Positions 17,009-37,211 of a DNA stretch of 55,521 bases are shown piece by piece. Positions within the stretch are counted from its first letter, which is position 1, and every line of letters starts with the position of its first letter. The notes below the pieces were generated by a model that worked only from the letters and a program-made list of their open reading frames with translations, was not told the DNA's origin and made no database searches. The DNA is from Rhodothermia bacterium. GTDB lineage: Bacteria > Bacteroidota > Rhodothermia > Rhodothermales > UBA10348. A program made the translations under genes and the position numbers. Where the stretch lies: positions 1-55,521 of the forward strand of contig BTQE01000005.1 in assembly GCA_036985715.1 (NCBI GenBank), given 5' to 3'.

Positions 17009-18742
17009 TTACCATCGCCACTTGGCTCCGGTATAGATCACCGAGGACTCGATCTCGTAGTTGTCCCAAAACTCCGTATTTCCACCAAGATTCCGAATTC
17101 CAACGGTGATTCCTGCCTGGGGAGTCAGATACCACGTGCCTTCAGTATCAAATAGAAGAACTGAGTCCAGTTTTTTCGACTCTTCTCTATCCCGATATCG
17201 GGCTGACTCACCTCGCGCCAGCATTTTCAGTGACAGACGACCATCGAACAGCCCGACAGCAACGGACGCGCCGAATGTCACCGGGGAGAAATAGGGTATA
17301 ACGGTATCGGCTTTGTCCAAACGTCCCCTTCTAAACGCGATCTCAGCTTCCGCCTGAATTCCGGGGGAAAGCGTTGCAGTGACAGACCCATCCAGATACG
17401 CGATGGATGCCGATCCATAGTCGACACTCATATATCCTCGGGCGAACCCCTTATAGAGAAAAGAAGGCGACTCGATGACGCGATAATTTTCGATTTCTTT
17501 CAGGCCGATACCTGCACTGGCATGAATAAACTCATTATACAGGCTGACTCTACCGCTCAGATGAACGGGTGTAAGAACGGGCTGGATTGGAGCGTTGTCC
17601 TCGATATACGGCGCCAGGTAGTATACGTCCCGAATTGTACTTCTAGAGATTTCCGGTTTATTAGAAAACACGAGATCGACACCCGGGCGAAGTGAATAAA
17701 TCAGCCGAACATCCGGCGACAAAAACAGGAGCGATCGATCTGTACTGGATCGAGATTGACGTTGAGCATCAAATCCGAGGACACTGAGTCCGGCGTCCAG
17801 CGTGAGTCCGTCGCCTGGGAACAGGCGAAAAGTTCCGGCAATCTGGCCCGAAGAAATTTTGTCGTTCTCTGAGCCATCACTCCCCAAATTCTGAATTAGC
17901 AGATTCCCGCTAATAGAGACACGGCTGTCGTTAATCGGCGCGCGGAGGGAGCCTTTCAGGAGAAACTGTCCCTCACTTCGTTCGACGGGTTGGATAGACT
18001 GTTGCCCAGTGTCAAAGAGGTCCGTTTCCACATCACTACGACCAACACCGATTTCAAGTCTTCCGGTTAACGGCGATCCTTGTTTCGTGCCCACGTAACC
18101 AGACATATCCCAACCCGATACTGTTCGGTCTGGATTTACAGCGAAGACTGATCCTGAGCTGTGCTCAGAGCCAAACAAGGAAAAGGCCGATCGATACAGG
18201 CCGAGTTTTCCTCCAATCTGAACCCTCGCGGCATTGTGATTGATGCCTGCGGACAATCGTGCAGTGTCTGAGCCTGTGGTAATGGACGGCGTGTTTGAAA
18301 ACGGCTCGTGTCCGTCTGAGCCTTGATACAGTCCCGAGAGTACAACATGGGTCTGATCTGCTACCGGTACACTCAAATTCGTTCGCAGATACCGCTCGAA
18401 ATATCGACCTATTCCGGCCTCAATGAGTCCGGCATTTGGAGTTCGATTCGCGAGAGGCGATACTTCGGGTGGCTGCGGCTCGCTAAGTGGACTCGGAGGA
18501 AGCTCCTCTGCTGATTGCTTGTACAGTTCCAAAAAAGGACGTCTAGAAGAAGGAATTTCCGGGACGCGAGGGGGTGGATTGAAGCCGATGAGGGGTTGTC
18601 GCCTCAAGGACGGGAAAGAAATCGACAGATCGCCTGTAATCTCTACGACACGTGGAGCCAAATCCGGAAGCGTAGAATTTTCTTGAGCCAATGAAAGGCC
18701 AGGAATCAGCAGTAGCGTCAAGAATGTCAAGATATTTCTCAT
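17009..18742 (-). CDS. Outer-membrane beta-barrel (TonB-dependent-receptor-like) protein
   Basis: Signal peptide, Pro-rich N-terminal region, amphipathic strands, GIRNL and terminal YTGAKWRW. Overlaps the TPR gene stop (ATGA). Confidence 0.7.
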   Translation of the reverse strand: MRNILTFLTLLLIPGLSLAQENSTLPDLAPRVVEITGDLSISFPSLRRQPLIGFNPPPRVPEIPSSRRPFLELYKQSAEELPPSPLSEPQPPEVSPLANRTPNAGLIEAGIGRYFERYLRTNLSVPVADQTHVVLSGLYQGSDGHEPFSNTPSITTGSDTARLSAGINHNAARVQIGGKLGLYRSAFSLFGSEHSSGSVFAVNPDRTVSGWDMSGYVGTKQGSPLTGRLEIGVGRSDVETDLFDTGQQSIQPVERSEGQFLLKGSLRAPINDSRVSISGNLLIQNLGSDGSENDKISSGQIAGTFRLFPGDGLTLDAGLSVLGFDAQRQSRSSTDRSLLFLSPDVRLIYSLRPGVDLVFSNKPEISRSTIRDVYYLAPYIEDNAPIQPVLTPVHLSGRVSLYNEFIHASAGIGLKEIENYRVIESPSFLYKGFARGYMSVDYGSASIAYLDGSVTATLSPGIQAEAEIAFRRGRLDKADTVIPYFSPVTFGASVAVGLFDGRLSLKMLARGESARYRDREESKKLDSVLLFDTEGTWYLTPQAGITVGIRNLGGNTEFWDNYEIESSVIYTGAKWRW

Positions 18743-23013: not shown

Positions 23014-24153
23014 TCAGCTGCCCTCGTAGAGCCGGAGCTGAGCTCCAGAAATCCAGATCTGTTCGATTCGAGACGCGGGTATTTCAAATTTTTCCGACAG
23101 ACTCGAAATATCGGATGAAGACAGTTGTGCAATGCTCTCGTAAGAAGCCAAACCCAATTCGCGGAGATCTCTGAATTCGCCGTCCGTAAGGCCGAGGAGA
23201 ATCTGCAGGCCGACCGCTTTAGTCTCCGAGCTGGATTCATCCGGGTCCAACGTTTCGGAATCGCCCTCGTCCAGATTTAGGAGAGGGAATAAATCGGTGA
23301 GAGATTTGAATTGAGGAAACTCGGGGATCGTGATATCGCCGGTTTCAATCTGCCGTTCACCATGTTTTTGATCCGAAGAAGGCTCGGCTTCTGGAGGGGT
23401 GGGCCCTTTCGCGGCTGATTCTACCTCGCTTGTGCCGATAGTTGAGCTGATTTCACCAAATATGTAGGAAATGATGTTCGTAGCCCAATCAGTAACTGAT
23501 TCCACTTTTTCGGACGGTTCGCGCGCGGGCTCCGCTTTTTCGTACGGTTCGCGCTCGGGCTCTGCTTTTTCGGACGGTTCGCTTCCGGGTGCCTTGCTTT
23601 CGCCCTTTTCGCTCTCGGATGAAGCAGGGGTTATCGGGGAATCGTCTGACTCATTATCGGGTGCGTCCGGCGCCACATTTTCAGACGCGTCCATTTCTTC
23701 GGAAATTGTTTCGGAAGATGCTTCGGAAAACGATTCGGTACTGAATTCAACGTCCTCAATTTCATAGACAAACCCGGCAGCCTCGCCCGGTCCACGTTTC
23801 AACGACTCGATCTCATCTTGAAGAATCCGGAGGTCGAGATCGTGCTCCTCTTTCGTGATGCTGATCTCAAGAGATTTCTGCTCGAGTTCTTCGCGGAGCA
23901 GAGTGATGGTGGCCTCAAGCGTATCAGAATTATCAGTTCGTTTCTGCGCTTTCATAGCCGCTCGAATGCGGGCAAATTCTTTCTCTCTATTCCCGAGCGC
24001 CGTTTCTCTGGCTTCGAACAATCCAAGCTCTTTTTTGTGACGGACGCGATACAGGAAAAAGCCGCCGGCTATTCCAGCTGCCAACCAGATGATCGTCAGA
24101 ATGATGATCTCAATAGAATCGGGGATAGCGTCTATGAGAAGTACGGGACTCAA
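23014..24153 (-). CDS. Membrane-anchored coiled-coil/acidic protein with a C-terminal HhH-like domain
   Basis: N-terminal TM, coiled coil, disordered acidic linker with repeats, C-terminal LRELGLASYESIAQLS...RIEQIWISGA. Confidence 0.6.
   Translation of the reverse strand: MSPVLLIDAIPDSIEIIILTIIWLAAGIAGGFFLYRVRHKKELGLFEARETALGNREKEFARIRAAMKAQKRTDNSDTLEATITLLREELEQKSLEISITKEEHDLDLRILQDEIESLKRGPGEAAGFVYEIEDVEFSTESFSEASSETISEEMDASENVAPDAPDNESDDSPITPASSESEKGESKAPGSEPSEKAEPEREPYEKAEPAREPSEKVESVTDWATNIISYIFGEISSTIGTSEVESAAKGPTPPEAEPSSDQKHGERQIETGDITIPEFPQFKSLTDLFPLLNLDEGDSETLDPDESSSETKAVGLQILLGLTDGEFRDLRELGLASYESIAQLSSSDISSLSEKFEIPASRIEQIWISGAQLRLYEGS
23501..23590. repeat. In-frame 30-bp tandem repeat, about 3 copies
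   Basis: tcc(a/g)ctttttcg(g/t)acggttcgcg..cgggc units encoding EPSEKAEPER/EPYEKAEPAR/EPSEKVES. Confidence 0.9.
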
Positions 24154-24468: not shown

Positions 24469-24852
24469 ATGCCCTTCGGAACGGTCAGAATTAAGAACGC
24501 TGTTTTTTACGCCCATCATGGCGTATTGAAAGAAGAACATCGAATCGGCGGTCGCTACGAGGTCGACGTCGAGATGAAATTGGATTTCGAGGCGGCTGCT
24601 GCCGACGATGACCTGAACCACACGGTCGACTATGAACACGTTTACACGCTGATTCGGGATATTGTCACAACCAACAAGTTTTATCTGATTGAGAGACTCG
24701 CATATCTGATAGCTCAGGATATTCTTGAGGCAAGTCCGATTGTTACAGAGATCGAGGTCAGTGTAAGAAAAGCGAATCCGCCAGTGGGCGGACCATGCGA
24801 TTGTGCAGAAGCAACGTATCGGACCAGCCGGGCGCGGACCGACAGTCAGTAG
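24469..24852 (+). CDS. folB: Dihydroneopterin aldolase
   Basis: FYAHHGVLKEE...DDLNHTVDY...LIERLA...VRKANPP. Confidence 0.95.
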   Translation: MPFGTVRIKNAVFYAHHGVLKEEHRIGGRYEVDVEMKLDFEAAAADDDLNHTVDYEHVYTLIRDIVTTNKFYLIERLAYLIAQDILEASPIVTEIEVSVRKANPPVGGPCDCAEATYRTSRARTDSQ

Positions 24853-27800
24853 AAAAGTCCCACGCCGATAATGATCGTGGTCTCCTCCTCGGAGAAATTG
24901 ATCGTTGCGGTGAATACGGAGAGATTGTACAGATTGGCCCAAAATCCGACTCCATAGCCCTGGTGCCATACCGACGAATTTTCTCCATCGGTCCACACGC
25001 GACCGTTGTCTACGAATGCAAGGGCTCCGGCTGAGCCCACGGCCAACAGCGTTGAGTATCGAAAAGTTGTGTTCGAATCTCGAAGCTCTGATAAAACGCA
25101 GTTCGGCCGGCAAAGCGAGTGCTGCGCCAGCCTCTCAGATTATTTCTCCCACCGAGTGTACTTGATCTGTAAAATGGAAATTCTCCGATATTGTGACGAA
25201 CACCCACTCTGGCAGCGAAGGTGTGCTGTGTCAGCGAGACCGGAGTCAGGTACAAGGAGAAATCGGACGATATCTCAGTGAAATCGGGCGTTGACTCATG
25301 CAAACCAAATCTGAGATGCAGCCGGTTTTCCCAGAAAAATCCCTGTCTCGGAAAGACCGCAGAGTCGCGAACATCAACCTTGATTCCCGATTCAAATCCG
25401 AGAAAGGATTCGTCTCCGAACGATGTCGGAGCGATACCCGCCTGTGGAAGACCCACAAACCGAAGCGAGTCTTTCTTGATATCGGTGCCCTCCAATCTTG
25501 GCCCGACATAGAATTCCAGAAACCCACCCACAGGCTTAATAAATCGAATCCCAACCACGGTCTCAGAAAATCGGGCTTGATAAAATCTGGCATCCTTAGC
25601 AGTATTGGGACTTTCGTTTCCGAGTCCATAATAGTTGCGGATATTATTGGGCGTCCGAATGGAGGCTTCAACACCAATATCCCAGCCATTCAAGCGATTG
25701 GTAAAGCGCCCCTCATAGGCCACATTAAACGCCTGCGTTCTGGCAGCGAGATTGGCTCGAAAGGAGTGCCTGTTGTCGAACGGCGGGCGCCTGAAGCTGT
25801 AACGTGTGAACGTGGTACCGCCACCGATGAAGAGTCCATCATCCTGATTCCGACCGAAGAATAGAGACGGCATGAATTCCGGGTATCCGTACTCGCGGGG
25901 ATCATAGCGGTTAACCAGTGGATCATCAGACACTTGCACGGAGATGGCCGGCCCCAGTTGAATCTGAGTCTCGAATGGCACATCGTAGACAACGAAGCTA
26001 TTCCTGCGGGCCAATGGGCCGGATTTATCTATGAATTGATCTGCGCCGGTCCCACCGATGGCTCGAATGCGAATGCCTCCTTTTGCATTTCCGCTTACGA
26101 TAAAAACATCATTCCCACCGAGTCCGTACAGTCGTACTTCCTTTGTTTCAGAACCGAGAAAGATTCTCCGAAAAAGCTCTTTTCGAATTTCTCCTTCCTT
26201 GGATGTCTTGTACATGACAACTTCAGTCCGATCGCCACTGAGCTTTTGAATCTCGAATCGCTCATGCTTATTGGATCCCACTACGTCCGGAAATCGACTG
26301 ATGATTTCATAGTACTCTTCGGCTGCATCTGGCAATTTTTCCCTCCGAACCCTGAGGAGGTGACGAAATTCGTCTGCATATAATTTCAGGATCGGTTCAG
26401 GAAAATCGCTTACAGCCGAATCGATGACTTCATCGGTGACTCGGTCTTGAATATCACGTGCAATTTCCAACCAGTCGCTCCTGGTGAGAGACGTCGTGAA
26501 CCTTCTATCCTGAGGTCGTCCGTTCCGGGTCAAGCCCCTGATATACCCGTAGCTCTCTCGAAAATCTTGATTCTTGGCGAGAACAAATCGAGATTTAGCA
26601 ATGCTTGGAAAAATTCCATTCATACGACTCATGGCCCAATCTCGATCTCGAGGGATCGCGCGATAGCGTTTTCCTTTGCTGCCCTCAGCAGGAAATTCAG
26701 CCCAGCGCCACTGATCTGAATGTCGATCCCAGTCGGAGATGTACATGTCAAAGAGGCGAGCTCGGGCGAAGAAACGCTCATCGACGCGATAATCATTGTC
26801 GCTCGCAATTTTTTTCGTCATAGACACGCTGCCGATAACTTTTTTGGATCTTCCAAATGTCGGCGCGTGAGACATGTCGTCGTCCGGTCGCTCCTCAAAC
26901 AGCATTATCTGGTCGGCAACCACATCCCTGAAAGGTCCAAAACGATCGTCTTTTGGGACAAGGAAGATCTTCGGATTGGTGTGGTAGACACCCGCACCAT
27001 GAGCAAGTTTAGGTACAACAATAGGTGCGTACGGGTGCAAGATGGCATACTGGTCAACCACAATATTAGCCGCGAGGGTCTCTTCCAGTCCCGGCGGCAA
27101 ACTTTTCGTAGGATCTTTTGATACGGATCGTAGAACAAATTGCTTTCCCTGCGAATCGCGCAACCGGAGGGAGGTGGTCTGAAGTCCGCCGCCCCTTTTA
27201 ATGGGTGTCAGGCCTCCAGACTCGCTGCCTATGTCAAACACTGGAAAGTCGACTTCAGCCGTCCAGGCTTTCCTGTTTTCAGAGCCGAAGAAGAAATTGT
27301 GGAGACCGCCAGCGGCAAGCGAAGGATTCGCGGCACGCCGAACGGTTGAATCCGGTGGGATCAACAGTTGCTGCTCGTCTTCAACGATGATGGGTTCGGT
27401 AACTACTTCGGGAGCGGGACCTTCGATCTGAGCATGATAAAGAAGACGTCCTTCCGGGGTGTTTTCGTCGCTTCCCCAAGCCTCAAGCCACATCTCACCG
27501 TTTGCATAAAATCGAATTCGGATGAAACCTTTTCCGCCGTACGTAAAACGAGCATTTCTACCTGCAGCTACATAGTCAGATTTTGATCCAGCTCCACTGA
27601 CGACATGATGGACATGATCCTCGTAGAAGTATTGCAGGTTGTGTTCATGTCCTGCTGCGTAGATCAATCTGGATTCATGGGTTTTGAAGATGGCGTCCAA
27701 AGCGCTTATCAAAGAGCGATATTTGGGGTGAGAAAAGTCTTGCGGTCCTCCCATGGCGCGCCGAAGAATAGGGTAGAGGGAGCCGATGATCGGTAGCGGC

Positions 27801-28603
27801 ACGTACCATCCATCCTTCAGGGCGGTAAGCGGAAACAAATGGTCCTTAATCGAGAAATGTCCACCGTGTCTACCGTTAGATCTAATGGGGTGGTGAGCGA
27901 CCACGACCAGGTCGTCTTTTCGACGCTTGGTTACGATTTCCTGAAGCTCTAGAATCAGATCGGCATCTTCTTTGATATCGGCTGAACCCGAATCCCCGTA
28001 CGGTTTCACGGCACCCGTCATCCACCACTCGGTATCGAGCACGATCAGATATAAATTATCTTCCAGTTTTACTTCAACGGGACCCGGTAATCCATTGTCT
28101 GGTAGAAACGCATTCCTGTTATTCAAGTATGATTCGACAAATTCTTCCTGTCGGTTGACGAGATCCACTCTTTTTGTTGAGCCCCTGCCCCAATCGTGAT
28201 TTCCCGGTACGAATACGACTCGACCTTTGTAATTCTTGACGGCATCCAACTGGGCACGCAGTCGCATCTCGGCGAATGCCCGGCTTGAAGATGAGGAATC
28301 GGGAAGGCCGCAACAGTACACGTTGTCACCAAGGAAGACGACGGTACCGTTAGAGTCGGCTTCCTGTGTCATCCGTTGAAGCAATCGCAGCGTCGGCTCG
28401 GATGAGGAAGAGGCGGACCCTCCTGCATCACCGATGAGATATACCTCGTGCTTCAGCTCTTCAATCGAAGGAGGTGCAGCGGGTAGGCTCGTCCGATCAA
28501 ATGGAGAGATATAGACAGACGACGCGGTGCATCCGGCCAGAATGAGCAGAACGATCGGCACAAGCTTGTAGCGATGCTTTCCAGCCGTGTAGAACCAGCT
28601 CAT
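24846..28603 (-). CDS. Lipoprotein with calcineurin-like metallophosphoesterase + kinase-like domain + Omp85/BamA-TamA barrel; 1-nt frameshift at about 25058-25065
   Basis: LAGC lipobox; GDAG, GDNVY, GNHDW and GHEH motifs; DWDRHSDQW; barrel motif LGGRNNLRGW. The true C-terminus (FVDNGRVW...IIGVGLFY) is in ORF 24846-25046 in another frame. Confidence 0.85.
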
Positions 28604-28607
28604 ACGA

Positions 28608-29498
28608 TCAAGGCCCTTTCTCTGAGATTTGTGGGGAATATTTCACCAGGACTGCTCGGCTGCCGGCGCCCTCCGAAGCAAGAATCAAGGATCCGTCTGG
28701 CATAAAAGCAATGCCTTCGGGCTGCCGTACAATACTCTTATTCAACTTTTGTACCGCCAGTATTTTGCCCGTCATATTCGTAACAATCAGCAGTCGATTC
28801 GGCGAAGATAACAGAAATAGATGGCCGCTTTCAGGATGCACTGCGATGGCTGATGGTTTGAATCGCGAATGCCGGATACGCTTGCCAGCGAAGGCGGCCG
28901 ACAAGCTATCACTTGAAAGTACAAAGAGAGGCTGCTCGCTTACACGCTTGGTGTGAACATCGAAGCTGTAGACGGCCCTGGAGCGGCGAATTTTCTTACC
29001 TGCGTAGTCCTTGCAAACAACAAACAGGGTGCCGGACCTCGGGTCGGACGCTAGTCCTTCAGAATTGCAACGTCTCGACAAACGTGTTCGGATACGCTCG
29101 GACTGTATTCGTTTGCCCCACGTTCTGCGATCGGAACTGAACGTGAACAGGTCCCCGTCGCTCCGGAGGACAAAGAGTTGGCTCCCGAGTAATTCAACGC
29201 CCTCAAAGTCTCCCCGCCCACCAAACTTTACTGAATCCACGATTTTTCCGGTTTCCACATTGAGCACGAATAAGGTTCCATTTTCATCCTGAACCGCGGC
29301 CACATGGATAGAATCCAGGGGCGCGAGTCCGGAGATTTCATCCAGTTCGTGAGGGAGTTTGAAGATGGCATCGGGCTTTTCCAGGCGAAACGGAATTATG
29401 TCGACACTCGAAAGACCAGTCGAGGCGTTGGCCAGGAATGAAAGTGAAACGAGAGACCGTATCAGAAAAAGAAACAGATGGTATCCAGGAATCAGCAT
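28608..29498 (-). CDS. SdiA-regulated/YjiK-like secreted beta-propeller (phytase-like)
   Basis: Signal peptide; LDEISGL, AVQDE, GDFEGV, NSEGLA, FKPSAIAVHP, QPEGIAF, ASEG repeats. Confidence 0.82.
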   Translation of the reverse strand: MLIPGYHLFLFLIRSLVSLSFLANASTGLSSVDIIPFRLEKPDAIFKLPHELDEISGLAPLDSIHVAAVQDENGTLFVLNVETGKIVDSVKFGGRGDFEGVELLGSQLFVLRSDGDLFTFSSDRRTWGKRIQSERIRTRLSRRCNSEGLASDPRSGTLFVVCKDYAGKKIRRSRAVYSFDVHTKRVSEQPLFVLSSDSLSAAFAGKRIRHSRFKPSAIAVHPESGHLFLLSSPNRLLIVTNMTGKILAVQKLNKSIVRQPEGIAFMPDGSLILASEGAGSRAVLVKYSPQISEKGP

Positions 29499-29665
29499 AT
29501 TGGTTTTCGCTCGCGAGGGCTAACATTGCTAAGAGCTGTAATAATTAAGACTCAAGAATACCTGAGTATCAGCGCATGCCCATAATGACCTAGGAGGAGA
29601 GGCCTGTGGATTCGTACATTTGTCTCTCTAAATGATACACCATCAGCAAGGGGAATTCCGTTTTA

Positions 29666-30451
29666 ATGGAGCCTAACGAGAAGTTGAATCGAGATCAGTC
29701 CGAGCCAGAAGCGGGTTCAAACGAGGAGTCAGAATCATCCGCTGCGGATGTGTCGAAGGATTCGACTGCTTTTTCGGCGGCATCCGACTCACTGGAATCG
29801 TCCGTTTCCACGAAGAAGCAGAAAAAGAAAAAAGACGGTCTCGGCACATCTCGGGGAATCGAAACCATATTCAGGACTTCTTATAGAGTCCACATGAATC
29901 TGAGTTCGCTAGCAGATGCCAAGGCAAATATCATGATCAGTATCAATGGGCTCATCATTTCTATCATAATCGCTGCGATTTCTCCAAAGATCGATACGAA
30001 CCCCTGGTTGCTTCTTCCCACGACCATTATGCTTTTGGGTTCACTGATTTCGATCGTCTACGCGGTTCGTGCGGCCAGGCCAAGAGTAAGCAGCCAAATA
30101 GTGTCACTCGACGATGCGGGAAGTAAGCGAACGAACATTCTCTTTTTCGGACACTTCACGAATATGACTGAAGATGAGTTCGTTTTAGGTATGTCCAATC
30201 TGCTCTCAGATCAGACCTCGCTTTATCAGAATATGATCAGGGACATATATGGTCTAGGTCAGGTTCTGAAACGAAAATTTTCGTTACTAAGAATTTCCTA
30301 TACCGTATTCATGGTAGGCCTGATCCTTGGCATTCTGGCGTTCATATCAACGTATACATGGATCGTTATTAGTCTCGGTCCGGAAGAGTTATCGTCGATT
30401 TTACCATCCGAAGGCCCAACACTTCTCGCTAGCATGGGATTCGCAATATGA
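29666..30451 (+). CDS. Pycsar-effector-like (DUF5706/PycTM) membrane protein without an HD domain
   Basis: RGIETIFRTSYRVH..LSSLADAKANIMISIN, two TMs, ARPR, NILFFGHF, LGQVLKRKFSLLRISY, then a third TM. Confidence 0.82.
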   Translation: MEPNEKLNRDQSEPEAGSNEESESSAADVSKDSTAFSAASDSLESSVSTKKQKKKKDGLGTSRGIETIFRTSYRVHMNLSSLADAKANIMISINGLIISIIIAAISPKIDTNPWLLLPTTIMLLGSLISIVYAVRAARPRVSSQIVSLDDAGSKRTNILFFGHFTNMTEDEFVLGMSNLLSDQTSLYQNMIRDIYGLGQVLKRKFSLLRISYTVFMVGLILGILAFISTYTWIVISLGPEELSSILPSEGPTLLASMGFAI

Positions 30452-30969
30452 AAACGGTCATCCTGCTTCGGCATGGAAAATCAGATTGGGATGCCGATTA
30501 CGTTGGCGATCACCGGAGGCCCCTCGCCGGGCGTGGACAGAAAGCTTCGATTAAAGTCGGTAAATTCCTTGCGAGAACGAACCAGTTGCCCGGACTCGTG
30601 CTCTGCTCAACGGCCTTGAGAACGCGGGAAACTCTGGAGTTGGCCATGGATGCAGGAGAATGGACGGATGTAGATGTCAAATACGACAATACTATCTACC
30701 ACGCAGGCTACGATCAGATGCTCAGGTGTTTGGCGGCTCTGCCGGATGAGGTGGATCGGGTCATGGTTGTAGGACACGAACCGACAGCCTCACTTCTGGC
30801 CGGTCAGTTGATCGGCGGCGCTTCTCTCAATTTTCCAACTGCGGCAGTCGCTCGAATTGATCTAAACCTCGAACATTGGAAAAGCTGTCGCTCGGGCGTA
30901 GGCACACTCATATGGCTCATTAGTCCGCGTCTCCTAAAGAAAGGGATCAAGATATCTAAGAAGATTTGA
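30448..30969 (+). CDS. sixA: SixA-like histidine phosphatase
   Basis: LLRHGKSDW...D..RPL..RG, STALRTRET, VGHEP, FPTA. ATGA-coupled to the effector gene. Confidence 0.9.
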   Translation: MKTVILLRHGKSDWDADYVGDHRRPLAGRGQKASIKVGKFLARTNQLPGLVLCSTALRTRETLELAMDAGEWTDVDVKYDNTIYHAGYDQMLRCLAALPDEVDRVMVVGHEPTASLLAGQLIGGASLNFPTAAVARIDLNLEHWKSCRSGVGTLIWLISPRLLKKGIKISKKI

Positions 30970-33394
30970 TTTCTTCCGATTGGAAAGAACTGGATTCCAT
31001 AACCAGTTCCATGTCTTCACGTTCTTTCAGGTCCAGATCTGCAACCGGTTTGTTTTCAGCGACCTTGACCCGAAGTGCTTTCAGTCCGTGAACTCCCTGA
31101 AGCTGTTCAAGCTGAAGGTATTCGACTCCGGCTTCAACATACCCGGCAGCCTGCAAGTAATCCAGAAATCGGACGTACTCGTCTGCCTCTGCCTCCTGGG
31201 AATAGACGATGGCGATCATCCCAGGCTGCGTTAGACGCTCATTGGTGCTGGCAATCCGTACTTTGTCAATTCGTTTTTTGACGATTTCATACCGGATATT
31301 GTAGGCGCCGTCTACGTCAAACTTCTTCTCATCAATTCGAAAGCGAATCGAAAGAGGAGCTGACTGGACAAGTACGAGATGGGCCGTTTCCAGTGGCACC
31401 TCCAAGTGCGGTTTGAGCTTATTCATTTCCCAAACGACTCCAGCCATCGAAGTGAGCTGCCAGAGTTTGAGGTTTTTCAAATCCAGCTCATCAAATTCTC
31501 CACTTTCCTGTAAGGCAGAGCCAGCATAGATATTATACTCGACTCCGTCTGTTTTATACTTTTCGAAGTAATGAGGTACCATTGCCTGAGCTTCTTCCTC
31601 TCGCTGATCCAGGAAACTTGAGATGGTGTCATTCACGGCGGTCACACTGTCTTCAAACGCTTTTCGCTTCTTATAGACAACCCCGAGTTTTTCATCCAGC
31701 GCCTCTCGGTAAACGTCAACCTTGTCAGCGACAGTCTGAGAATACGCTCGTAGCCGATCAAACAATGGCTCGACTTCAGTCTGAAGAAGTAGAATGAGTG
31801 CGCGTTCGTCACCCGCTCTCGTCCCGGCGACCAATTCCTCGATATGCCTGCTCAGTCGATACCCTATCTCGTCGAGAGAAGGTCTCGGTTTGGAAACGCT
31901 GGCTTCGATAATCACAGACAACGCTAAACCCAGTTGTTCTACGAGATCATCTCTAATGGCGGTACTACGAAGATCAGACGATCCACGTATGTCGGTCATC
32001 CCGTAAAGCGGGTGTACATTTTCAAAAACAATGCCCGCGACTTCTCCCTGTTCACTTGAATTCTCTGAGAGAAGACGCGAGAGCGCCGCTTCTCTAAACT
32101 TCCACTCGACGACCGGGTGGATGGCCGTATACTGTTTTTTAATAATGGCCTGGACGCGATCTTCCTGTTCCTCCAGACTCCGATTGACGGACGTGGACAG
32201 GAGAGAAGTTATTTCATGGAGTTGTCGTGATTGCATCGGACCAATGTCGCAGCAGTTCGTCGATGCAAGCTCAAGAACCCCTACCACGTCATCCTTATTG
32301 ATCAAAGAGGCGAGGTAAATATTGCGAAAGCCCAACTCTTGAAGACGTCGTTCAAACGCTGTGTTTTTTTCCCGTTTGTTCAGGTCTTCGACATAAATAT
32401 GCCCGCCTGATCGAATGACTTCAGCATAGTAGGACTCTTGCCAGTTCTCACATTTCGGCAAGTCGGATTGAAGAAGTAGACTTCGTCCAATCGCTCTGGC
32501 CCCCGACACGCTTCCACAGCGACAACGGTCCAAAGCTATGAGGCCCAGGCGTAAATCTGGCAGCGCGAGGAGTTCCCGGATATGAGACTGCAGTCGATTC
32601 AGGTTTTCGTCTCCCGACAACGCGTCTTTCAGAAGCAGTGCATTCTTGAGTCTTGAAAGAACCTCTTGCTGAGTCACGTTAATGGCAGTCATCACGACGA
32701 ATCCATGAAACTCGAAATGCTCGGGTGGCAAAATTTCCATCCACAATTCGAGATTCAACGGTTCTGCCAAGAGACGGCGACGGTCCTCTTCTGACAAGTC
32801 AGGAATCGAATTCGGCGTACTAATCGAGACGAATTCCGGGTCGATAATTATTTTGTAGTACTCATTCAGACCCGTTTCTACGTCGACGAGTTCGATCACA
32901 AAATCAATGGGTTGCTCGACCTTCAAATCGTAGATGGATGAAGCAATCTTGTGATACGCGTTCATGGTCTTTCCGCGCATCATCTCATCCACGCCTACCT
33001 TGGCGCCATGAATGTGAACATGGAGCAGAAATTTTTCGAGAATTCCCAACTCGTCGAACAGACTTGTCGAATAAAACGAGTGAACGGCGAACGGCACGAA
33101 GGCCGATGCAATAATATTGTCCTGAAGAGCCGGGGGAAAAACGGCGGTCATCATCAATTCAAGAAGCTCTGGATGCCGTCTCAGATCTTCGAGTGAAACC
33201 TGAGACGTTTTTAGCTCCGGAGCGTTTTCCAGTTGGGTTAACACCTCCATTGCGATTGCGGCGTTGGTCGTCGACTCGGATGAAGCGCGTTGCTCCCAGA
33301 AATCGATCAGCTTTTGCAGCGAGGCAAAGCGTCGAAATGGAAATAAATCATCGAATGCTTGTACGTCAGCCGTACCGCGTATTGGGGGTGTCAT
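30956..33394 (-). CDS. GAF-domain protein with a putative class III nucleotide-cyclase-like C-terminus
   Basis: GAF region (VEDL...GFRNIYLASL...VVGVLELAS), then YGMTDIRGSS, EKYKTDGVEY, KFDVDGAYNIR, PGMIAIVYSQ, LQGVHGLKALRV. The cyclase call is inference. Confidence 0.75.
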   Translation of the reverse strand: MTPPIRGTADVQAFDDLFPFRRFASLQKLIDFWEQRASSESTTNAAIAMEVLTQLENAPELKTSQVSLEDLRRHPELLELMMTAVFPPALQDNIIASAFVPFAVHSFYSTSLFDELGILEKFLLHVHIHGAKVGVDEMMRGKTMNAYHKIASSIYDLKVEQPIDFVIELVDVETGLNEYYKIIIDPEFVSISTPNSIPDLSEEDRRRLLAEPLNLELWMEILPPEHFEFHGFVVMTAINVTQQEVLSRLKNALLLKDALSGDENLNRLQSHIRELLALPDLRLGLIALDRCRCGSVSGARAIGRSLLLQSDLPKCENWQESYYAEVIRSGGHIYVEDLNKREKNTAFERRLQELGFRNIYLASLINKDDVVGVLELASTNCCDIGPMQSRQLHEITSLLSTSVNRSLEEQEDRVQAIIKKQYTAIHPVVEWKFREAALSRLLSENSSEQGEVAGIVFENVHPLYGMTDIRGSSDLRSTAIRDDLVEQLGLALSVIIEASVSKPRPSLDEIGYRLSRHIEELVAGTRAGDERALILLLQTEVEPLFDRLRAYSQTVADKVDVYREALDEKLGVVYKKRKAFEDSVTAVNDTISSFLDQREEEAQAMVPHYFEKYKTDGVEYNIYAGSALQESGEFDELDLKNLKLWQLTSMAGVVWEMNKLKPHLEVPLETAHLVLVQSAPLSIRFRIDEKKFDVDGAYNIRYEIVKKRIDKVRIASTNERLTQPGMIAIVYSQEAEADEYVRFLDYLQAAGYVEAGVEYLQLEQLQGVHGLKALRVKVAENKPVADLDLKEREDMELVMESSSFQSEEIKSS

Positions 33395-33501
33395 TGATGA
33401 ATATGCAGATCGTGATGATTGGGTGATTCAATTAAACGAGTCGGTATGTGTTGTGTTGCGTAAATCCTGCTCTATGCGGTTATGGCAACGAAGCCAACTC
33501 T

Positions 33502-33540
33502 GTGGTACGTTACATACTGCCCGTGGTACGTTATATACTG
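33502..33540. promoter_or_regulatory. 18-bp direct repeat pair with a 21-bp period
   Basis: GTGGTACGTTACATACTG (33502-33519) and GTGGTACGTTATATACTG (33523-33540) in the divergent intergenic region. Confidence 0.7.
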
Positions 33541-33645: not shown

Positions 33646-35109
33646 TTGGACCCGAACACCTCAACCCCTTTCAACGCCAGTCGCGTACATCTAATCGGTC
33701 TTTTCGCAGGTCCGGCCGGCTTTCTACTCACGTTGGTCCTGGCTCCGCCCGAAGGCCTCAGCCTGGAGGGTTGGAGGGTTGCCGGAGTTGGTCTATTGAT
33801 GGCGGTCTGGTGGATGACGGAAGCCGTGCCTATCCCGGCAACTTCTCTGTTGCCACTCGTCTTGTTCCCACTTTTGGGAATTGAAGACATTCGCTCGACC
33901 GCTGCGCCTTATGCGAATCCCCTGATATACCTCTTTCTGGGAGGATTCTTAATTGCGGAAGCGGTGCAGCGTTCAGGCCTTCACAAGAGGCTCGCGCTCC
34001 TGATCCTCGGCAAGACGGGGAATTCGCCTAAGATGATCGTTGCCGGCTTCATGGTCGCTACGGCGTTTCTGAGCATGTGGGTGTCCAATACGGCGACGAC
34101 TCTGATGATGCTGCCGATTGGCATCTCCGTGGTCCATCTTGCATCGTCTTCTGTAGCAGTCGGGAAGGAGTCGATCCGCCGATTTGGAACGTTGCTCATG
34201 CTTTCGATTGCATATTCCGCGAGCGTCGGCGGTGTGGGTACATTGGTCGGCACGCCGCCCAATGCACTGATGGCTGGATTTCTCGAAGATACCTATGGAA
34301 TAGCCATTGGGTTCGCAGAATGGCTGTGGGTGGGAATTCCATTGGTAATTATCGGTCTCCCGGTCGTCTATGTGATATTGGTCTATGGTGTTTATCAGCC
34401 CGAATTCGACTCGATCCCTGGAGGACGCCGCATGTTCGAGAGGAAGTACACGGAGTTGGGTCCGTTTTCCAAGCGTGAATTCCGGGTCTCTCTTGTTTTT
34501 TTCGGTGTTGCCCTTCTATGGATAACGCGGCCGCTGCTCACGGGGGTCGTTTCCGGCCTTTCTGATCCTGGGATTGCCATGGCTGGAACCGTCATTTTGT
34601 TCGTTTTGCCGGCCGATTCACTTCGGGGCGATCGACTTCTTGCGTGGTCTGACGCTACCAAGATTCCATGGGGAGTGCTCATCCTATTCGGGGGCGGCCT
34701 TAGCCTGGCCGGGGCAATTGACAGTAGCGGATTGGCGGCGTGGATCGGAGATGGTCTTTCTCAATTATCTGTTCTCCCAACACCCGTCGTTATCCTTATT
34801 ATTACAACTACCGTTATTTTTCTCACAGAACTCACCAGTAACACAGCCACGGCTGCAGCATTTTTACCCGTTGTTGGAACTGTTGCGGTTGTATTGACGG
34901 GCGAGCCTCTGGTATTCGTGATTCCAGCGACGATTGCAGCGAGTTGTGCGTTCATGCTCCCTGTTGCCACCCCTCCGAATGCGGTAGTTTACGGGAGTGG
35001 ATTCATCACTCTTCCAGAGATGGCACGAGTCGGAATTTACTTGAATCTTGCCTTTATCGTGATCATTACCATTTTCTCGATCATTCTCCCAGCTAATTTG
35101 TTGAATTGA
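33646..35109 (+). CDS. SLC13/DASS family sodium:dicarboxylate/sulfate symporter
   Basis: WWMTEAVP, LSMWVSNTAT, GTPPN, TELTSNTATA, AFMLPVATPPNA. Confidence 0.95.
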   Translation: MDPNTSTPFNASRVHLIGLFAGPAGFLLTLVLAPPEGLSLEGWRVAGVGLLMAVWWMTEAVPIPATSLLPLVLFPLLGIEDIRSTAAPYANPLIYLFLGGFLIAEAVQRSGLHKRLALLILGKTGNSPKMIVAGFMVATAFLSMWVSNTATTLMMLPIGISVVHLASSSVAVGKESIRRFGTLLMLSIAYSASVGGVGTLVGTPPNALMAGFLEDTYGIAIGFAEWLWVGIPLVIIGLPVVYVILVYGVYQPEFDSIPGGRRMFERKYTELGPFSKREFRVSLVFFGVALLWITRPLLTGVVSGLSDPGIAMAGTVILFVLPADSLRGDRLLAWSDATKIPWGVLILFGGGLSLAGAIDSSGLAAWIGDGLSQLSVLPTPVVILIITTTVIFLTELTSNTATAAAFLPVVGTVAVVLTGEPLVFVIPATIAASCAFMLPVATPPNAVVYGSGFITLPEMARVGIYLNLAFIVIITIFSIILPANLLN

Positions 35110-35125
35110 TGCCGGCCTCTACATC

Positions 35126-36532
35126 ATGACGCAAACACAATTAGCCATACCCGCCGCCCACGGAAGGCCTCTCCGGTCGATCTCGACGGTGATACTCGGT
35201 ACGGACGACACGCGACTCGAGAAAATCTCAGCGCTTATTCGAGATGTCTCGGAGAGCGTGCGTGTTTTTCAGGTGTTGGAAGCCGAAATCGAGTCCCTGG
35301 ATCTGGAATCTGTTGGGCTCATCCTACTTGCGGATGCTGCTGAAGAAACACTCGCCAAGTTGGACGAGATTTTGGACTATACGGATCGAACGGTTCTTAC
35401 GTTCGCCTGTTTACCGGTTTCTGAAGTCGATACAATTCAGGATAAACTGCTTGATCATGTCGACGATATCCTGCTACATCCTGAGGAGCTTGCACTCCGG
35501 CTGCCTTTTGTCGAGCAAAGACTCCACAAGCGAGAGGAATCGCAGCGTCAAAATCGAGCTATTCTCGAAACAATTGTGGATGGGATTCTCACTATAGATT
35601 CGAGAGGTATCATCAACACGTTTAATCCGTCGGCGGAGAAGATCTTTGGCTATTCAGCACACGAAGTCATCGGAAAAGCCGTCGCAATCCTGATGCCACA
35701 ACCATGGAGTTCAAAGCATCAGTCCTATATACAGGAATACGAACGAACCGGGCAGGCACGAATTATAGGAATTGGACGCGAGGTCGTTGGTCTTAGAAAG
35801 AATGGAGAACAGTTCCCAATGGATTTGGCAGTGAGTGAAGTAAACTCGGAAGGCCAAAAGTTCTATACGGGGGTAGTACGCGATATTACCGATCGTCGTC
35901 AGCTTGAGCACGAGATTTTGAGAATTACCGACCAAGAGAGAAGGCGCATTGGACAAGACCTTCACGACGGTTTGGGTCAAATGCTCACGGGAATCGGACT
36001 CATCGCAAGAAGTCTCGTCACCAGAATGGAGCAGGAAGGCTCCAGTCATATCGAGGAAATGCGTGAGGTGACTGAGCTGATGAAAGAAGCCGACCGTAAT
36101 GCCCGAACGATTGCCCGGGGACTCGTTCCGGTGGAGCTCGACGTTAATGGTCTGGAGCATGCGTTGAGGATGCTTGTTACCGATGTCGAACAGTTGTTTG
36201 GAAGCCGGTGTACGTTTCATCAATCGGGTACGGTACCCGTACTTGAGATGAGTGCAATGACAAATCTATATCGCATAGCACAGGAGTCGCTGAGTAATGC
36301 CATCAAACACGGCAATGCGGATAGTGTGCGGATCGAACTCCAATCGAAATCTGGGAAACTCACGTTGTCTATCATCGACGACGGAATTGGTTTTTCCGAA
36401 GACTTACCGAAAAATCAAGGAATGGGTATTCCGATCATGAACTATCGCGCCCGGGCCATAGGTGCAACATTGGAAATAGGAGCCAGCGGAACCAAAGGAA
36501 CGACGGTGACGTGTTCACTGCCCGTCGAATGA
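35126..36532 (+). CDS. PAS-domain sensor histidine kinase (HisKA_3) with a FixL-like PAS
   Basis: FNPSAEKIFGY...LMPQP...HQSYI...TGQARIIGIGREV; ERRRIGQDLHDGLGQ; QESLSNAIKH; DDGIGF. Confidence 0.93.
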   Translation: MTQTQLAIPAAHGRPLRSISTVILGTDDTRLEKISALIRDVSESVRVFQVLEAEIESLDLESVGLILLADAAEETLAKLDEILDYTDRTVLTFACLPVSEVDTIQDKLLDHVDDILLHPEELALRLPFVEQRLHKREESQRQNRAILETIVDGILTIDSRGIINTFNPSAEKIFGYSAHEVIGKAVAILMPQPWSSKHQSYIQEYERTGQARIIGIGREVVGLRKNGEQFPMDLAVSEVNSEGQKFYTGVVRDITDRRQLEHEILRITDQERRRIGQDLHDGLGQMLTGIGLIARSLVTRMEQEGSSHIEEMREVTELMKEADRNARTIARGLVPVELDVNGLEHALRMLVTDVEQLFGSRCTFHQSGTVPVLEMSAMTNLYRIAQESLSNAIKHGNADSVRIELQSKSGKLTLSIIDDGIGFSEDLPKNQGMGIPIMNYRARAIGATLEIGASGTKGTTVTCSLPVE

Positions 36533-36560
36533 ACCTGTTTGATAACCGAAAGCGCCTGAT

Positions 36561-37211
36561 ATGACACGCATTCTGGTCGTCGACGATCATCCACTCATGC
36601 GAAAGGGACTCATCATGTCTCTTTCTGACGATCCGGACGTTGAGGTTTGTGCGCAGGCCTCTAACGCAGAGGAGGCCATGAGCCTGGTTGAATTGGAAAG
36701 CCCCGACCTCGTAATCGTGGACATCTCACTTCCAGGGATGAGTGGTCTCGAGCTTATAAAGCAACTGCATGCGATACGCCCCGAACTCTATACGCTCGTG
36801 GTCTCCCGGCACGACGAATCCCTCTATGCCGAGCGTGCAATCCGAGCTGGAGCACGGGGGTATGTCATGAAACTCGAAGCCGGGAACGTGATGACAAAAG
36901 CTGTCCACCGCGTTCTCTCTGGCGGTATTTATGTCAGTGAGGAGATTAACGAAAAGCTCCTGATGGGTATGGCAGCCGGACACACCTTGTCGAGTCACTC
37001 GCCGCTGGATGTATTGAGCGATCGAGAATTGGAAGTGTTCGAGTTGACCGGTAAAGGGTCTGGCACTCGAGAAATATCGGAGCGCCTGCATCTATCCGTA
37101 AAGACCGTAGAATCCTATCGTGCTCGAATCAAGACAAAACTGAACCTTTCTACTACTTCCGAGCTGATGCAGCATGCCGTTCATTGGGTGGAGGGCGAAG
37201 GTGCCCGCTAA
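36561..37211 (+). CDS. NarL/LuxR-family response regulator
   Basis: VDDHPL, VDISLPGMSG, LSDRELEV...LSVKTVESYR. Confidence 0.95.
   Translation: MTRILVVDDHPLMRKGLIMSLSDDPDVEVCAQASNAEEAMSLVELESPDLVIVDISLPGMSGLELIKQLHAIRPELYTLVVSRHDESLYAERAIRAGARGYVMKLEAGNVMTKAVHRVLSGGIYVSEEINEKLLMGMAAGHTLSSHSPLDVLSDRELEVFELTGKGSGTREISERLHLSVKTVESYRARIKTKLNLSTTSELMQHAVHWVEGEGAR

Follow-up and report, generated by a model that had tools for sequence, protein, structure and literature searches.

To our knowledge, the one role known for three-helix membrane proteins of the PycTM type is that of suicide effectors in anti-phage cyclase systems. The closest described of these systems are Pycsar and Pucsar, in which a cyclase makes cyclic CMP or cyclic UMP (cCMP/cUMP) or cyclic GMP (cGMP), and the effectors are fusions of a cyclic-nucleotide-binding domain with TIR (CNBD-TIR) or three-helix proteins of the pJV1-SpdB3 family (PMC11224242; bioRxiv 10.64898/2026.08.12.744502). 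PucTM, a member of the latter family, is described as a cylindrical hexamer (bioRxiv 10.64898/2026.08.12.744502). Here we describe a locus of a Rhodothermia bacterium (order Rhodothermales; GenBank assembly GCA_036985715.1, labelled G000 and 94.9% complete) in which a protein of the same family belongs to a conserved chromosomal gene cluster. The stretch analyzed, hereafter the window, comprises positions 1 to 55,521 of contig BTQE01000005.1 (55,521 nucleotides), and the five genes concerned lie between positions 24846 and 33394. The locus is a conserved non-defence relative of the cyclase and three-helix signalling systems. The reading that we put forward, and on which as a whole we are evenly balanced between belief and doubt, is that Bacteroidota and Gemmatimonadota have an old chromosomal module, passed on vertically, of which the five genes represent one copy and which works by the mechanism proposed below. 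Loci, genomes and contigs are cited by working labels (L, G and C numbers) where they need to be told apart.

All five open reading frames (ORFs) lie where the first-pass annotation of this DNA had placed its five clustered genes, and they form two divergent arms. On the forward strand the PycTM-family three-helix protein, here called 3TM (29666..30451, 261 amino acids), is followed by a SixA-like histidine phosphatase (30448..30969, 173 amino acids), whose start overlaps the 3TM stop codon (ATGA). On the reverse strand an exported beta-propeller of the SdiA-regulated family (28608..29498, 296 amino acids; Pfam PF06977, E 4.1e-12) stands upstream of an Omp85-metallophosphoesterase, here called OmpMPE (24846..28603), and is transcribed in the same direction. 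The fifth gene, GAF812 (30956..33394, reverse strand), encodes an 812-amino-acid GAF protein and converges on the phosphatase gene. The 3′ ends of these two genes overlap by 14 bases (30956-30969), and those of GAF812 and the corresponding three-helix gene of Flavobacterium terrae, which carries a fused HD domain (HD-3TM), overlap by 4 bases (L225:8268-8271); there is therefore no space for a terminator between those genes. The ORF map leaves a divergent intergenic region between the two arms (29499..29665), which presumably harbours the promoters of both. No regulator site was identified in it by reading the sequence and by a palindrome search, which returned a single weak palindrome.

The assignment of 3TM is clear. 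It matches the Pfam PycTM family PF18967 with 101.8 bits (cut-off 27.2, E 3.4e-29) and the PADLOC PycTM model PDLC02364 with E 9.7e-22 (1e-21 when rounded), and it has three hydrophobic segments (residues 85-109, 113-137 and 205-239) behind a disordered N-terminus that is first acidic and then lysine-rich. By its sequence it is predicted to be an inner-membrane protein of the PycTM/pJV1-SpdB3 family; a sequence search of the PDB returned spurious membrane matches only. Orthologues are 50-76% identical within the order and 40-46% between classes, with 47 invariant columns among 13 sequences, and their neighbours are conserved as well. Outside Rhodothermia the protein is mostly 400-480 amino acids long and bears an N-terminal HD phosphohydrolase domain; the window protein is without this domain, which is fused to 3TM in most other Bacteroidota.

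The clustering of these genes is far beyond chance. In a set of 61 Rhodothermales genomes scored for 3TM, GAF812 and OmpMPE, the three were found in 38, 35 and 36 genomes, respectively, and the genome sets are almost identical: 3TM and GAF812 occur together in 34, 3TM only in 4, a weak GAF812 match only in 1, and neither in 22. This co-occurrence holds where the genes are unlinked, either separated by tens of kilobases or placed on different contigs (e.g., G055 and G060). Among 29 loci of relatives with 1.5-kb flanks, 3TM is adjoined by the propeller in 22, by GAF812 in 14 and by SixA in 13. A wider set was drawn from public genomes of Rhodothermales and Gemmatimonadota and comprises 80 loci with a 3TM orthologue (those of Gemmatimonadota at 55-63% identity), in which a gene within 7 kb of 3TM was counted as a neighbour. 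OmpMPE is a neighbour in 61/80 loci, the propeller in 53/80, SixA in 35/80, PPK1 in 24/80, an MBL-fold hydrolase in 20/80 and GAF812 in 12/80. Failure to co-occur in other genomes had been named beforehand as one of the findings that would speak against a common system; the genes do co-occur, with 3TM by OmpMPE in 61 of these 80 loci. Two layouts are seen in this set, the divergent one of the window and another in which propeller, OmpMPE, 3TM and SixA all lie on one strand.

The association extends over the phylum. From 151 evenly drawn Bacteroidota genomes, scanned with a profile of the 3TM domain, 59 possess 3TM, and the C-terminal half of GAF812 is found in 23, all of which (23/23) also have 3TM. 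In Flavobacterium and its relatives, whose proteins are about 30% identical to those of the window, GAF812 stands tail to tail with HD-3TM, and OmpMPE follows, in 13 of 14 loci, the contig of the fourteenth being too short to tell; at one locus (L222) all four genes are on one strand. Because the genes are kept together through rearrangement at such a level of identity, the module can be regarded as a functional unit.

GAF812 occupies the place of a cyclase beside 3TM: where 3TM has such a partner nearby, it is either GAF812 or a class III cyclase, never both. This was surveyed in 52 loci reaching 8 kb to either side of 3TM, from 51 of the 58 other 3TM-positive genomes in the 151-genome sample (seven genomes, all from a single well-sampled family, were omitted and one genome gave two loci). 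OmpMPE was present in 34 of these loci, a class III cyclase in 17 (six of them confirmed by Pfam), GAF812 in 12, and GAF812 together with a cyclase in 0. When every 3TM locus collected is taken together (144 loci, a biased sample in that 25 were chosen because GAF812 lay near), 36 have GAF812 within 7 kb, 26 have a cyclase at that distance and 0 have both. A FastTree phylogeny of the 3TM domain, a quick tree with neither branch support nor a shuffled baseline, implies at least seven switches between the two partner states. In Bacteroidia with small genomes, the propeller is followed by an OmpMPE without phosphoesterase part and then by a cyclase tail to tail with HD-3TM, exactly at the position of GAF812. 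In the class to which the window belongs, one strand carries OmpMPE, a cyclase-TPR protein and 3TM, and a single 382-amino-acid frame (L246:7371-8516, forward strand) fuses a class III cyclase domain (Guanylate_cyc, residues 25-168) to a PycTM 3TM domain (residues 258-367). On the Fulvitalea replicon pFA2 the genes are annotated as metallophosphoesterase, hypothetical protein, Pycsar effector family protein and adenylate/guanylate cyclase, that is, a plain cyclase after HD-3TM.

GAF812 itself consists of an N-terminal domain of unassigned kind of about 260 residues, a GAF domain (residues 277-404; 32183..32566, reverse strand) and a conserved C-terminal module (residues 450-785; 31040..32047, reverse strand). 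The first-pass description of a large GAF protein is borne out at the level of the family, whose profile matches solved GAF domains with E 2.3e-4; in the protein itself the GAF_2 match is weak (E 0.01) and under its cut-off (16.4 vs. 28.6 bits). Many homologues bear precomputed GAF matches (PF13185/PF01590), and a sequence search of the PDB returned no solved relative beyond GAF domains. Conservation is highest in the C-terminal module, which carries a helical insert of about 110 residues. Among 61 GAF812 sequences the residues D468, R476, D483, D616, G617, G625, R686, E689, D693, G696, R701, K706, D710, K711 and R720 are invariant, and position 699 is Asn in 50. They gather in three blocks, namely S/T-D468-I-R-G-S-S, K-T-D616-G-V-D/E-Y...G625, and R686..E689..D693-V-D-G-x-Y-N699-I-R701. 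The family is large, with 1130 representative clusters for the C-terminal half, almost all of about 800 amino acids and of the same architecture, and it is spread over many phyla, at more than 571 genome loci. Some homologues also bear a precomputed match to PF27174 of Pfam 38.1 (Atlas label "YeeD").

Conservation and predicted structure together make the C-terminal module a candidate divergent class III cyclase-like domain. In the ESM Atlas, all structure neighbours of residues 406-812 outside the family (3/3 rows) are Guanylate_cyc clusters, with TM-scores by query of 0.44, 0.40 and 0.44 over 216-242 aligned residues. For residues 450-785 all three are PF00211 clusters (0.44, 0.47 and 0.46, with 186-200 of 336 residues aligned). 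In a profile alignment with hhalign, block 1 (D468) pairs with the first metal-Asp motif of cyclases, and the remaining blocks are collinear. The resemblance to a cyclase fold is one of predicted models, and the chances that GAF812 is a nucleotide cyclase are in our judgement roughly even. A bolder proposal is that GAF812 founds a new and widespread cyclase class, with a diverged, insert-split class III-type palm missed by profiles, the product of which would gate a housekeeping PycTM-family pore wired to an outer-membrane phosphoesterase and PPK1, and that the three-helix proteins of Pycsar and Pucsar are defence offshoots of this older physiological pair. This we regard as a speculative possibility, on the unlikely side.

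The SixA-like protein matches His_Phos_1 (34.9 bits, cut-off 21.7), and its residues R8, H9, R58 and H110 are invariant in 15 orthologues. The name SixA given to it in the first-pass annotation is thus right as to domain and catalytic histidine; it falls short as to the equivalog, since TIGR00249 scores 55.3 bits vs. a cut-off of 74.5, and we speak of a SixA-like protein. Neither this protein nor GAF812 has hydrophobic segments, and both are presumably cytoplasmic. In several Bacteroidia (L269, L272 and L255) the gene order is HD-3TM, SixA, PPK1. PPK1 acts via a phosphohistidine intermediate, and because SixA adjoins PPK1 in these loci, PPK1 is one possible candidate for the target of the phosphatase. 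The stop of PPK1 overlaps the start of 3TM in Longimicrobiales of the Gemmatimonadota (L141:4689-7546), and in Reichenbachiella PPK1 separates the 3TM gene from that of GAF812. Linkage of PPK1 to 3TM was also observed at L083 and L105; in the window genome PPK1 is on a separate contig (C39). A phosphate link of the module is plausible, given that PPK1 lies within 7 kb in 24/80 loci.

In some Rhodothermales further genes linked to cyclic nucleotides stand in the neighbourhood. At one such locus (L117) 3TM is accompanied by an MBL hydrolase, a REC-cyclase, a histidine kinase, a protein binding cyclic nucleoside monophosphates (cNMP), an AI-2E transporter and SixA. Three other loci likewise contain the MBL, REC-cyclase, cNMP-binding and AI-2E genes, and L209 has 3TM, MBL and REC-cyclase. 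The MBL-fold gene lies directly 3′ of 3TM in 20/80 loci, and the best NCBIfam match of its product is a cyclic nucleotide-degrading phosphodiesterase (NF041851; E 3e-15, 56 bits vs. a cut-off of 400). In the window genome, at 94.9% completeness, no PF00211, CYTH or GGDEF gene was found. Another of its contigs (C47; L211:1333-2924) nevertheless encodes the pair seen in L117, namely a cNMP-binding protein of 179 amino acids and, after it, an AI-2E family transporter.

OmpMPE joins two domains over their cut-offs in one protein. Its open frame (25010-28603, reverse strand) encodes 1197 amino acids with a calcineurin-like Metallophos domain at residues 54-254 (32.6 bits, cut-off 21.5), an Omp85 domain at residues 915-1180 (36.6 bits, cut-off 24) and, between them, a conserved middle region of about 650 residues without Pfam assignment; no Pfam match to POTRA was found. 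The lipobox LAGC at residues 21-24 indicates a lipoprotein signal. The barrel is shortened by a frameshift of one base within a run of T at about 25061-25066, and the other frame continues for 72 codons to 24846, ending in GLFY as in the orthologues, which is why the first-pass annotation began the locus at 24846. This frameshift may be an assembly error, or the gene may truly be a pseudogene. The tail, displaced in this way, extends 7 bases into the end of FolB (24469-24852). The window genome also encodes an OmpMPE paralogue without the phosphoesterase part (G000:C4:36020-38293, reverse strand), which matches residues 417-1180 at 31% identity, and this short form accompanies 3TM in Gemmatimonadota and in the small-genome Bacteroidia as well. 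The sole hydrophobic segment of the propeller is its N-terminal signal; its Phytase-like Pfam match is below the cut-off, and the secreted phosphoesterases of the first-pass annotation are not supported as regards this protein.

The context of the locus is that of an ordinary chromosome. The flanking genes encode FolB, a PfkB kinase, a DASS transporter, a PAS kinase with a LuxR regulator, Lnt, ParA, DPP IV and ExbB, and no mobile or defence genes were seen in the window surroundings. 3TM has no match in 50,697 phage records and matches 3 of 72,556 plasmid records, all of them large non-mobilizable Cytophagales replicons. Its orthologues and their neighbours are conserved over order, class and phylum and do not show a patchy, mobile or defence-island distribution. 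Though 3TM is an effector of the Pycsar type by family, an adjacent PycC class III pyrimidine cyclase is absent, there being no PF00211 or PADLOC PycC match in the five proteins and no PF00211 match in the genome. High conservation, housekeeping context, absence from phages and the links to PPK1 argue against phage defence. We therefore favour a physiological circuit touching phosphate, polyphosphate and envelope over an abortive-infection switch. The first-pass annotation had likewise proposed a chromosomal phosphate- or envelope-signalling circuit instead of a two-gene defence operon, and conservation, chromosomal location and housekeeping flanks agree with it, its phosphate part being made plausible by PPK1. 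A simple Pycsar defence operon was considered and rejected, given the conserved neighbours, the flanks, the lack of phage matches and the OmpMPE, PPK1 and phosphatase partners, which are foreign to Pycsar. In the main texts of the literature we found no paper on the module in its housekeeping form, on the fusion of HD to 3TM, on GAF812 and its family, on PF27174 or on the Omp85-metallophosphoesterase fusion; Table S1 of the Pucsar preprint may list "physiological" cyclases.

The mechanism that we propose has the inner-membrane three-helix protein of the PycTM/pJV1-SpdB3 family as its constant core, to which three kinds of partner would be added: a phosphohydrolase, which may be an HD domain fused to 3TM or the product of an adjacent gene, SixA-like or of MBL fold; a signal generator, either a canonical class III nucleotide cyclase or GAF812; and the outer-membrane Omp85-phosphoesterase, often with the periplasmic propeller and in many lineages with PPK1. 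The N-terminal and GAF domains of GAF812 would detect a small ligand, and its cyclase-like C-terminal module would make a nucleotide second messenger. The messenger would act on 3TM, which by analogy with PucTM may be an oligomeric membrane pore, and the SixA-like, HD or MBL hydrolase would reset the system. Such a circuit would be tuned to envelope or phosphate physiology (surface phosphoesterase, polyphosphate) and not to the phage-triggered killing of the cell. The domains, the conservation of the module, the alternative placement of GAF812 and cyclases and the fusions of 3TM with a cyclase or an HD domain are established by the comparisons above; catalysis by GAF812, the kind of messenger, the gating of 3TM and the physiological output are inferred.

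Several results weigh against this mechanism. No cyclase domain was detected in the five window proteins by Pfam, NCBIfam or PADLOC, and GAF812 has no PF00211 match even at E 10. Aligned by hhalign with cyclases, the GAF812 family reaches E 0.042 over one motif only; the insert-free comparison reaches E 0.012 and a 61-residue piece in the segment-wise comparison E 9.5e-4, against block-shuffled controls of 0.015-0.35 that were taken to match the profile scores. A local cyclase hidden Markov model gives 250 family members at most 2.3 bits vs. 4.7 for reversed sequences. Of the two metal-binding Asp and the transition-state Asn and Arg expected of a class III cyclase, the alignment pairs only the first Asp, through the D468 motif, and the Atlas TM-scores, which compare one predicted model with another, are all below 0.5. 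Moreover, 82 of the 144 loci in the biased collection have neither GAF812 nor a cyclase within 7 kb, counts over loci draw on related genomes that are not independent observations, and the place of SixA in the circuit is left unexplained. 3TM is near GAF812 in only 5 of the best 80 of more than 571 GAF812 loci, no conserved neighbours of GAF812 were found across phyla (the best neighbour cluster covers 8/80 loci), and 4/5 GAF812 genomes from other phyla lack any PF18967 gene. Since GAF812 genomes outside Bacteroidota are mostly without a PycTM-family gene, the pair of 3TM and GAF812 is not obligate; GAF812 is a signalling protein of general kind, which in Bacteroidota and probably also in Gemmatimonadota has become wired to the 3TM module. 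The module may thus be real and GAF812 no cyclase, and rather a ligand-sensing regulator, an enzyme of other chemistry or a palm-like receptor domain, acting with the 3TM phosphohydrolase and OmpMPE in envelope or polyphosphate metabolism, the cyclases elsewhere being one of several interchangeable inputs. The missing sequence-level signal, the low Atlas scores and the spread of GAF812 without PycTM-family genes are what this alternative would expect, and the HD, SixA, MBL, metallophosphoesterase and PPK1 neighbours suggest phosphate chemistry. It does not readily account for the convergent position by 3TM that GAF812 shares with class III cyclases, with both in 0/144 loci and at least seven switches, nor for structure neighbours outside the family that are all cyclases, nor for the three motif-like blocks of invariant acidic and basic residues, which are laid out collinearly with the motifs of cyclases. 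We accordingly give this alternative a minority weight, though a substantial one. The first-pass claim that the GAF protein is a cyclase partnering the effector fares in the same divided way: the phyletic link (34 of 61 genomes with both; 23/23) and the cyclase slot uphold the partnership, whereas the sequence comparisons do not rise above controls and the fold rests on Atlas scores under 0.5.

Two further explanations have less in their favour. If the locus were a Pycsar-like abortive-infection system, a phage-triggered cyclase would activate the PycTM effector and the membrane would collapse. The names point this way, in that 3TM matches the Pfam PycTM, PADLOC PycTM and CBASS 2TM effector models and NCBI calls its homologues "Pycsar system effector family protein", and the cyclases of the module match PADLOC PycC models with E 1e-7 to 1e-23, which may hold for any class III cyclase. 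However, no PADLOC model, PycC included, matches GAF812, an outer-membrane protein, PPK1 and phosphatases are not parts of Pycsar, and the slow divergence of 3TM with conserved neighbours, its housekeeping surroundings and the counts from phage and plasmid records given above make this explanation improbable. It is also conceivable that the adjacency is an inherited gene order without common function, since close relatives share order by descent and counts over related genomes overstate independence. Against this, the genes stay together at about 30% identity in several orders and orientations, they are gained or lost together where unlinked, and domain fusions join two of the parts, so that mere inheritance of order is very improbable. 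The module reading, in which a signal generator in the cyclase position acts together with 3TM, remains the one that we carry forward.

Some observations on the wider surroundings may be added. Beyond GAF812 on the map (33646-37211) lie genes for a DASS-type symporter of the Na/sulfate family, a PAS-HisKA_3 kinase and a LuxR-type response regulator; the kinase is near GAF812 in 7/80 loci only. Two reverse-strand ORFs, 23014-24153 (379 amino acids) and 17009-18742 (577 amino acids), match no Pfam family at the thresholds applied.

The significance of the locus is that a member of the PycTM family here is a slowly evolving chromosomal gene, fused or coupled to phosphohydrolases, paired with cyclases of physiological appearance and linked to OmpMPE and PPK1. 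This offers a testable non-defence role for cyclase and three-helix signalling and a possible origin of the defence systems, and it provides a candidate function for a large uncharacterized family of GAF proteins and for the Omp85-metallophosphoesterase fusion. The triad is present in cultured species of Flavobacterium, so that genetic and biochemical work is feasible.

Parts of the module can each be set beside a known system. The cyanobacterial CyaB1 and CyaB2 are GAF-regulated class III adenylate cyclases, and GAF812 is like them in having a GAF domain upstream of a C-terminal module whose sole structure neighbours outside the family are class III cyclases. It is unlike them in lacking a PF00211 match, in its helical insert of about 110 residues and extra N-terminal domain of about 260 residues, and in its motifs S/T-D-I-R-G-S-S and K-T-D-G-V-D/E-Y, with no profile similarity above controls. 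The patatin-Omp85 protein PlpD of type Vd secretion is an Omp85-family protein with an enzymatic N-terminal passenger; OmpMPE shares the union of N-terminal hydrolase and Omp85 barrel in one polypeptide, but its hydrolase is a metallophosphoesterase, and it has a lipoprotein signal, a middle region of about 650 residues and no POTRA match. Compared with the SixA phosphohistidine phosphatase, the window protein has the His_Phos_1 fold, the invariant RHG histidine with a second histidine and a fitting length of 173 amino acids, but stays under the TIGR00249 cut-off. Apyc1-type MBL-fold enzymes are cyclic-nucleotide phosphodiesterases, and the MBL gene after 3TM in related loci has such a phosphodiesterase as its best NCBIfam name; its score is far under the cut-off, and in the window the place is taken by SixA, an MBL gene being absent.

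The comparison with Pycsar (PycC with PycTM) and Pucsar (PucC with PucTM) is the closest. In all of them a cyclase or, here, a cyclase-like protein stands beside a three-helix protein of the same family, and related loci of the present module possess a true class III cyclase. The partner in the window, GAF812, is nevertheless without a recognizable PycC or PF00211 domain, and the 3TM of this module has a fused HD or an adjacent SixA or MBL hydrolase and is tied to OmpMPE and PPK1. Unlike the two defence systems, the module is vertically conserved in a housekeeping context and is not found in phages.

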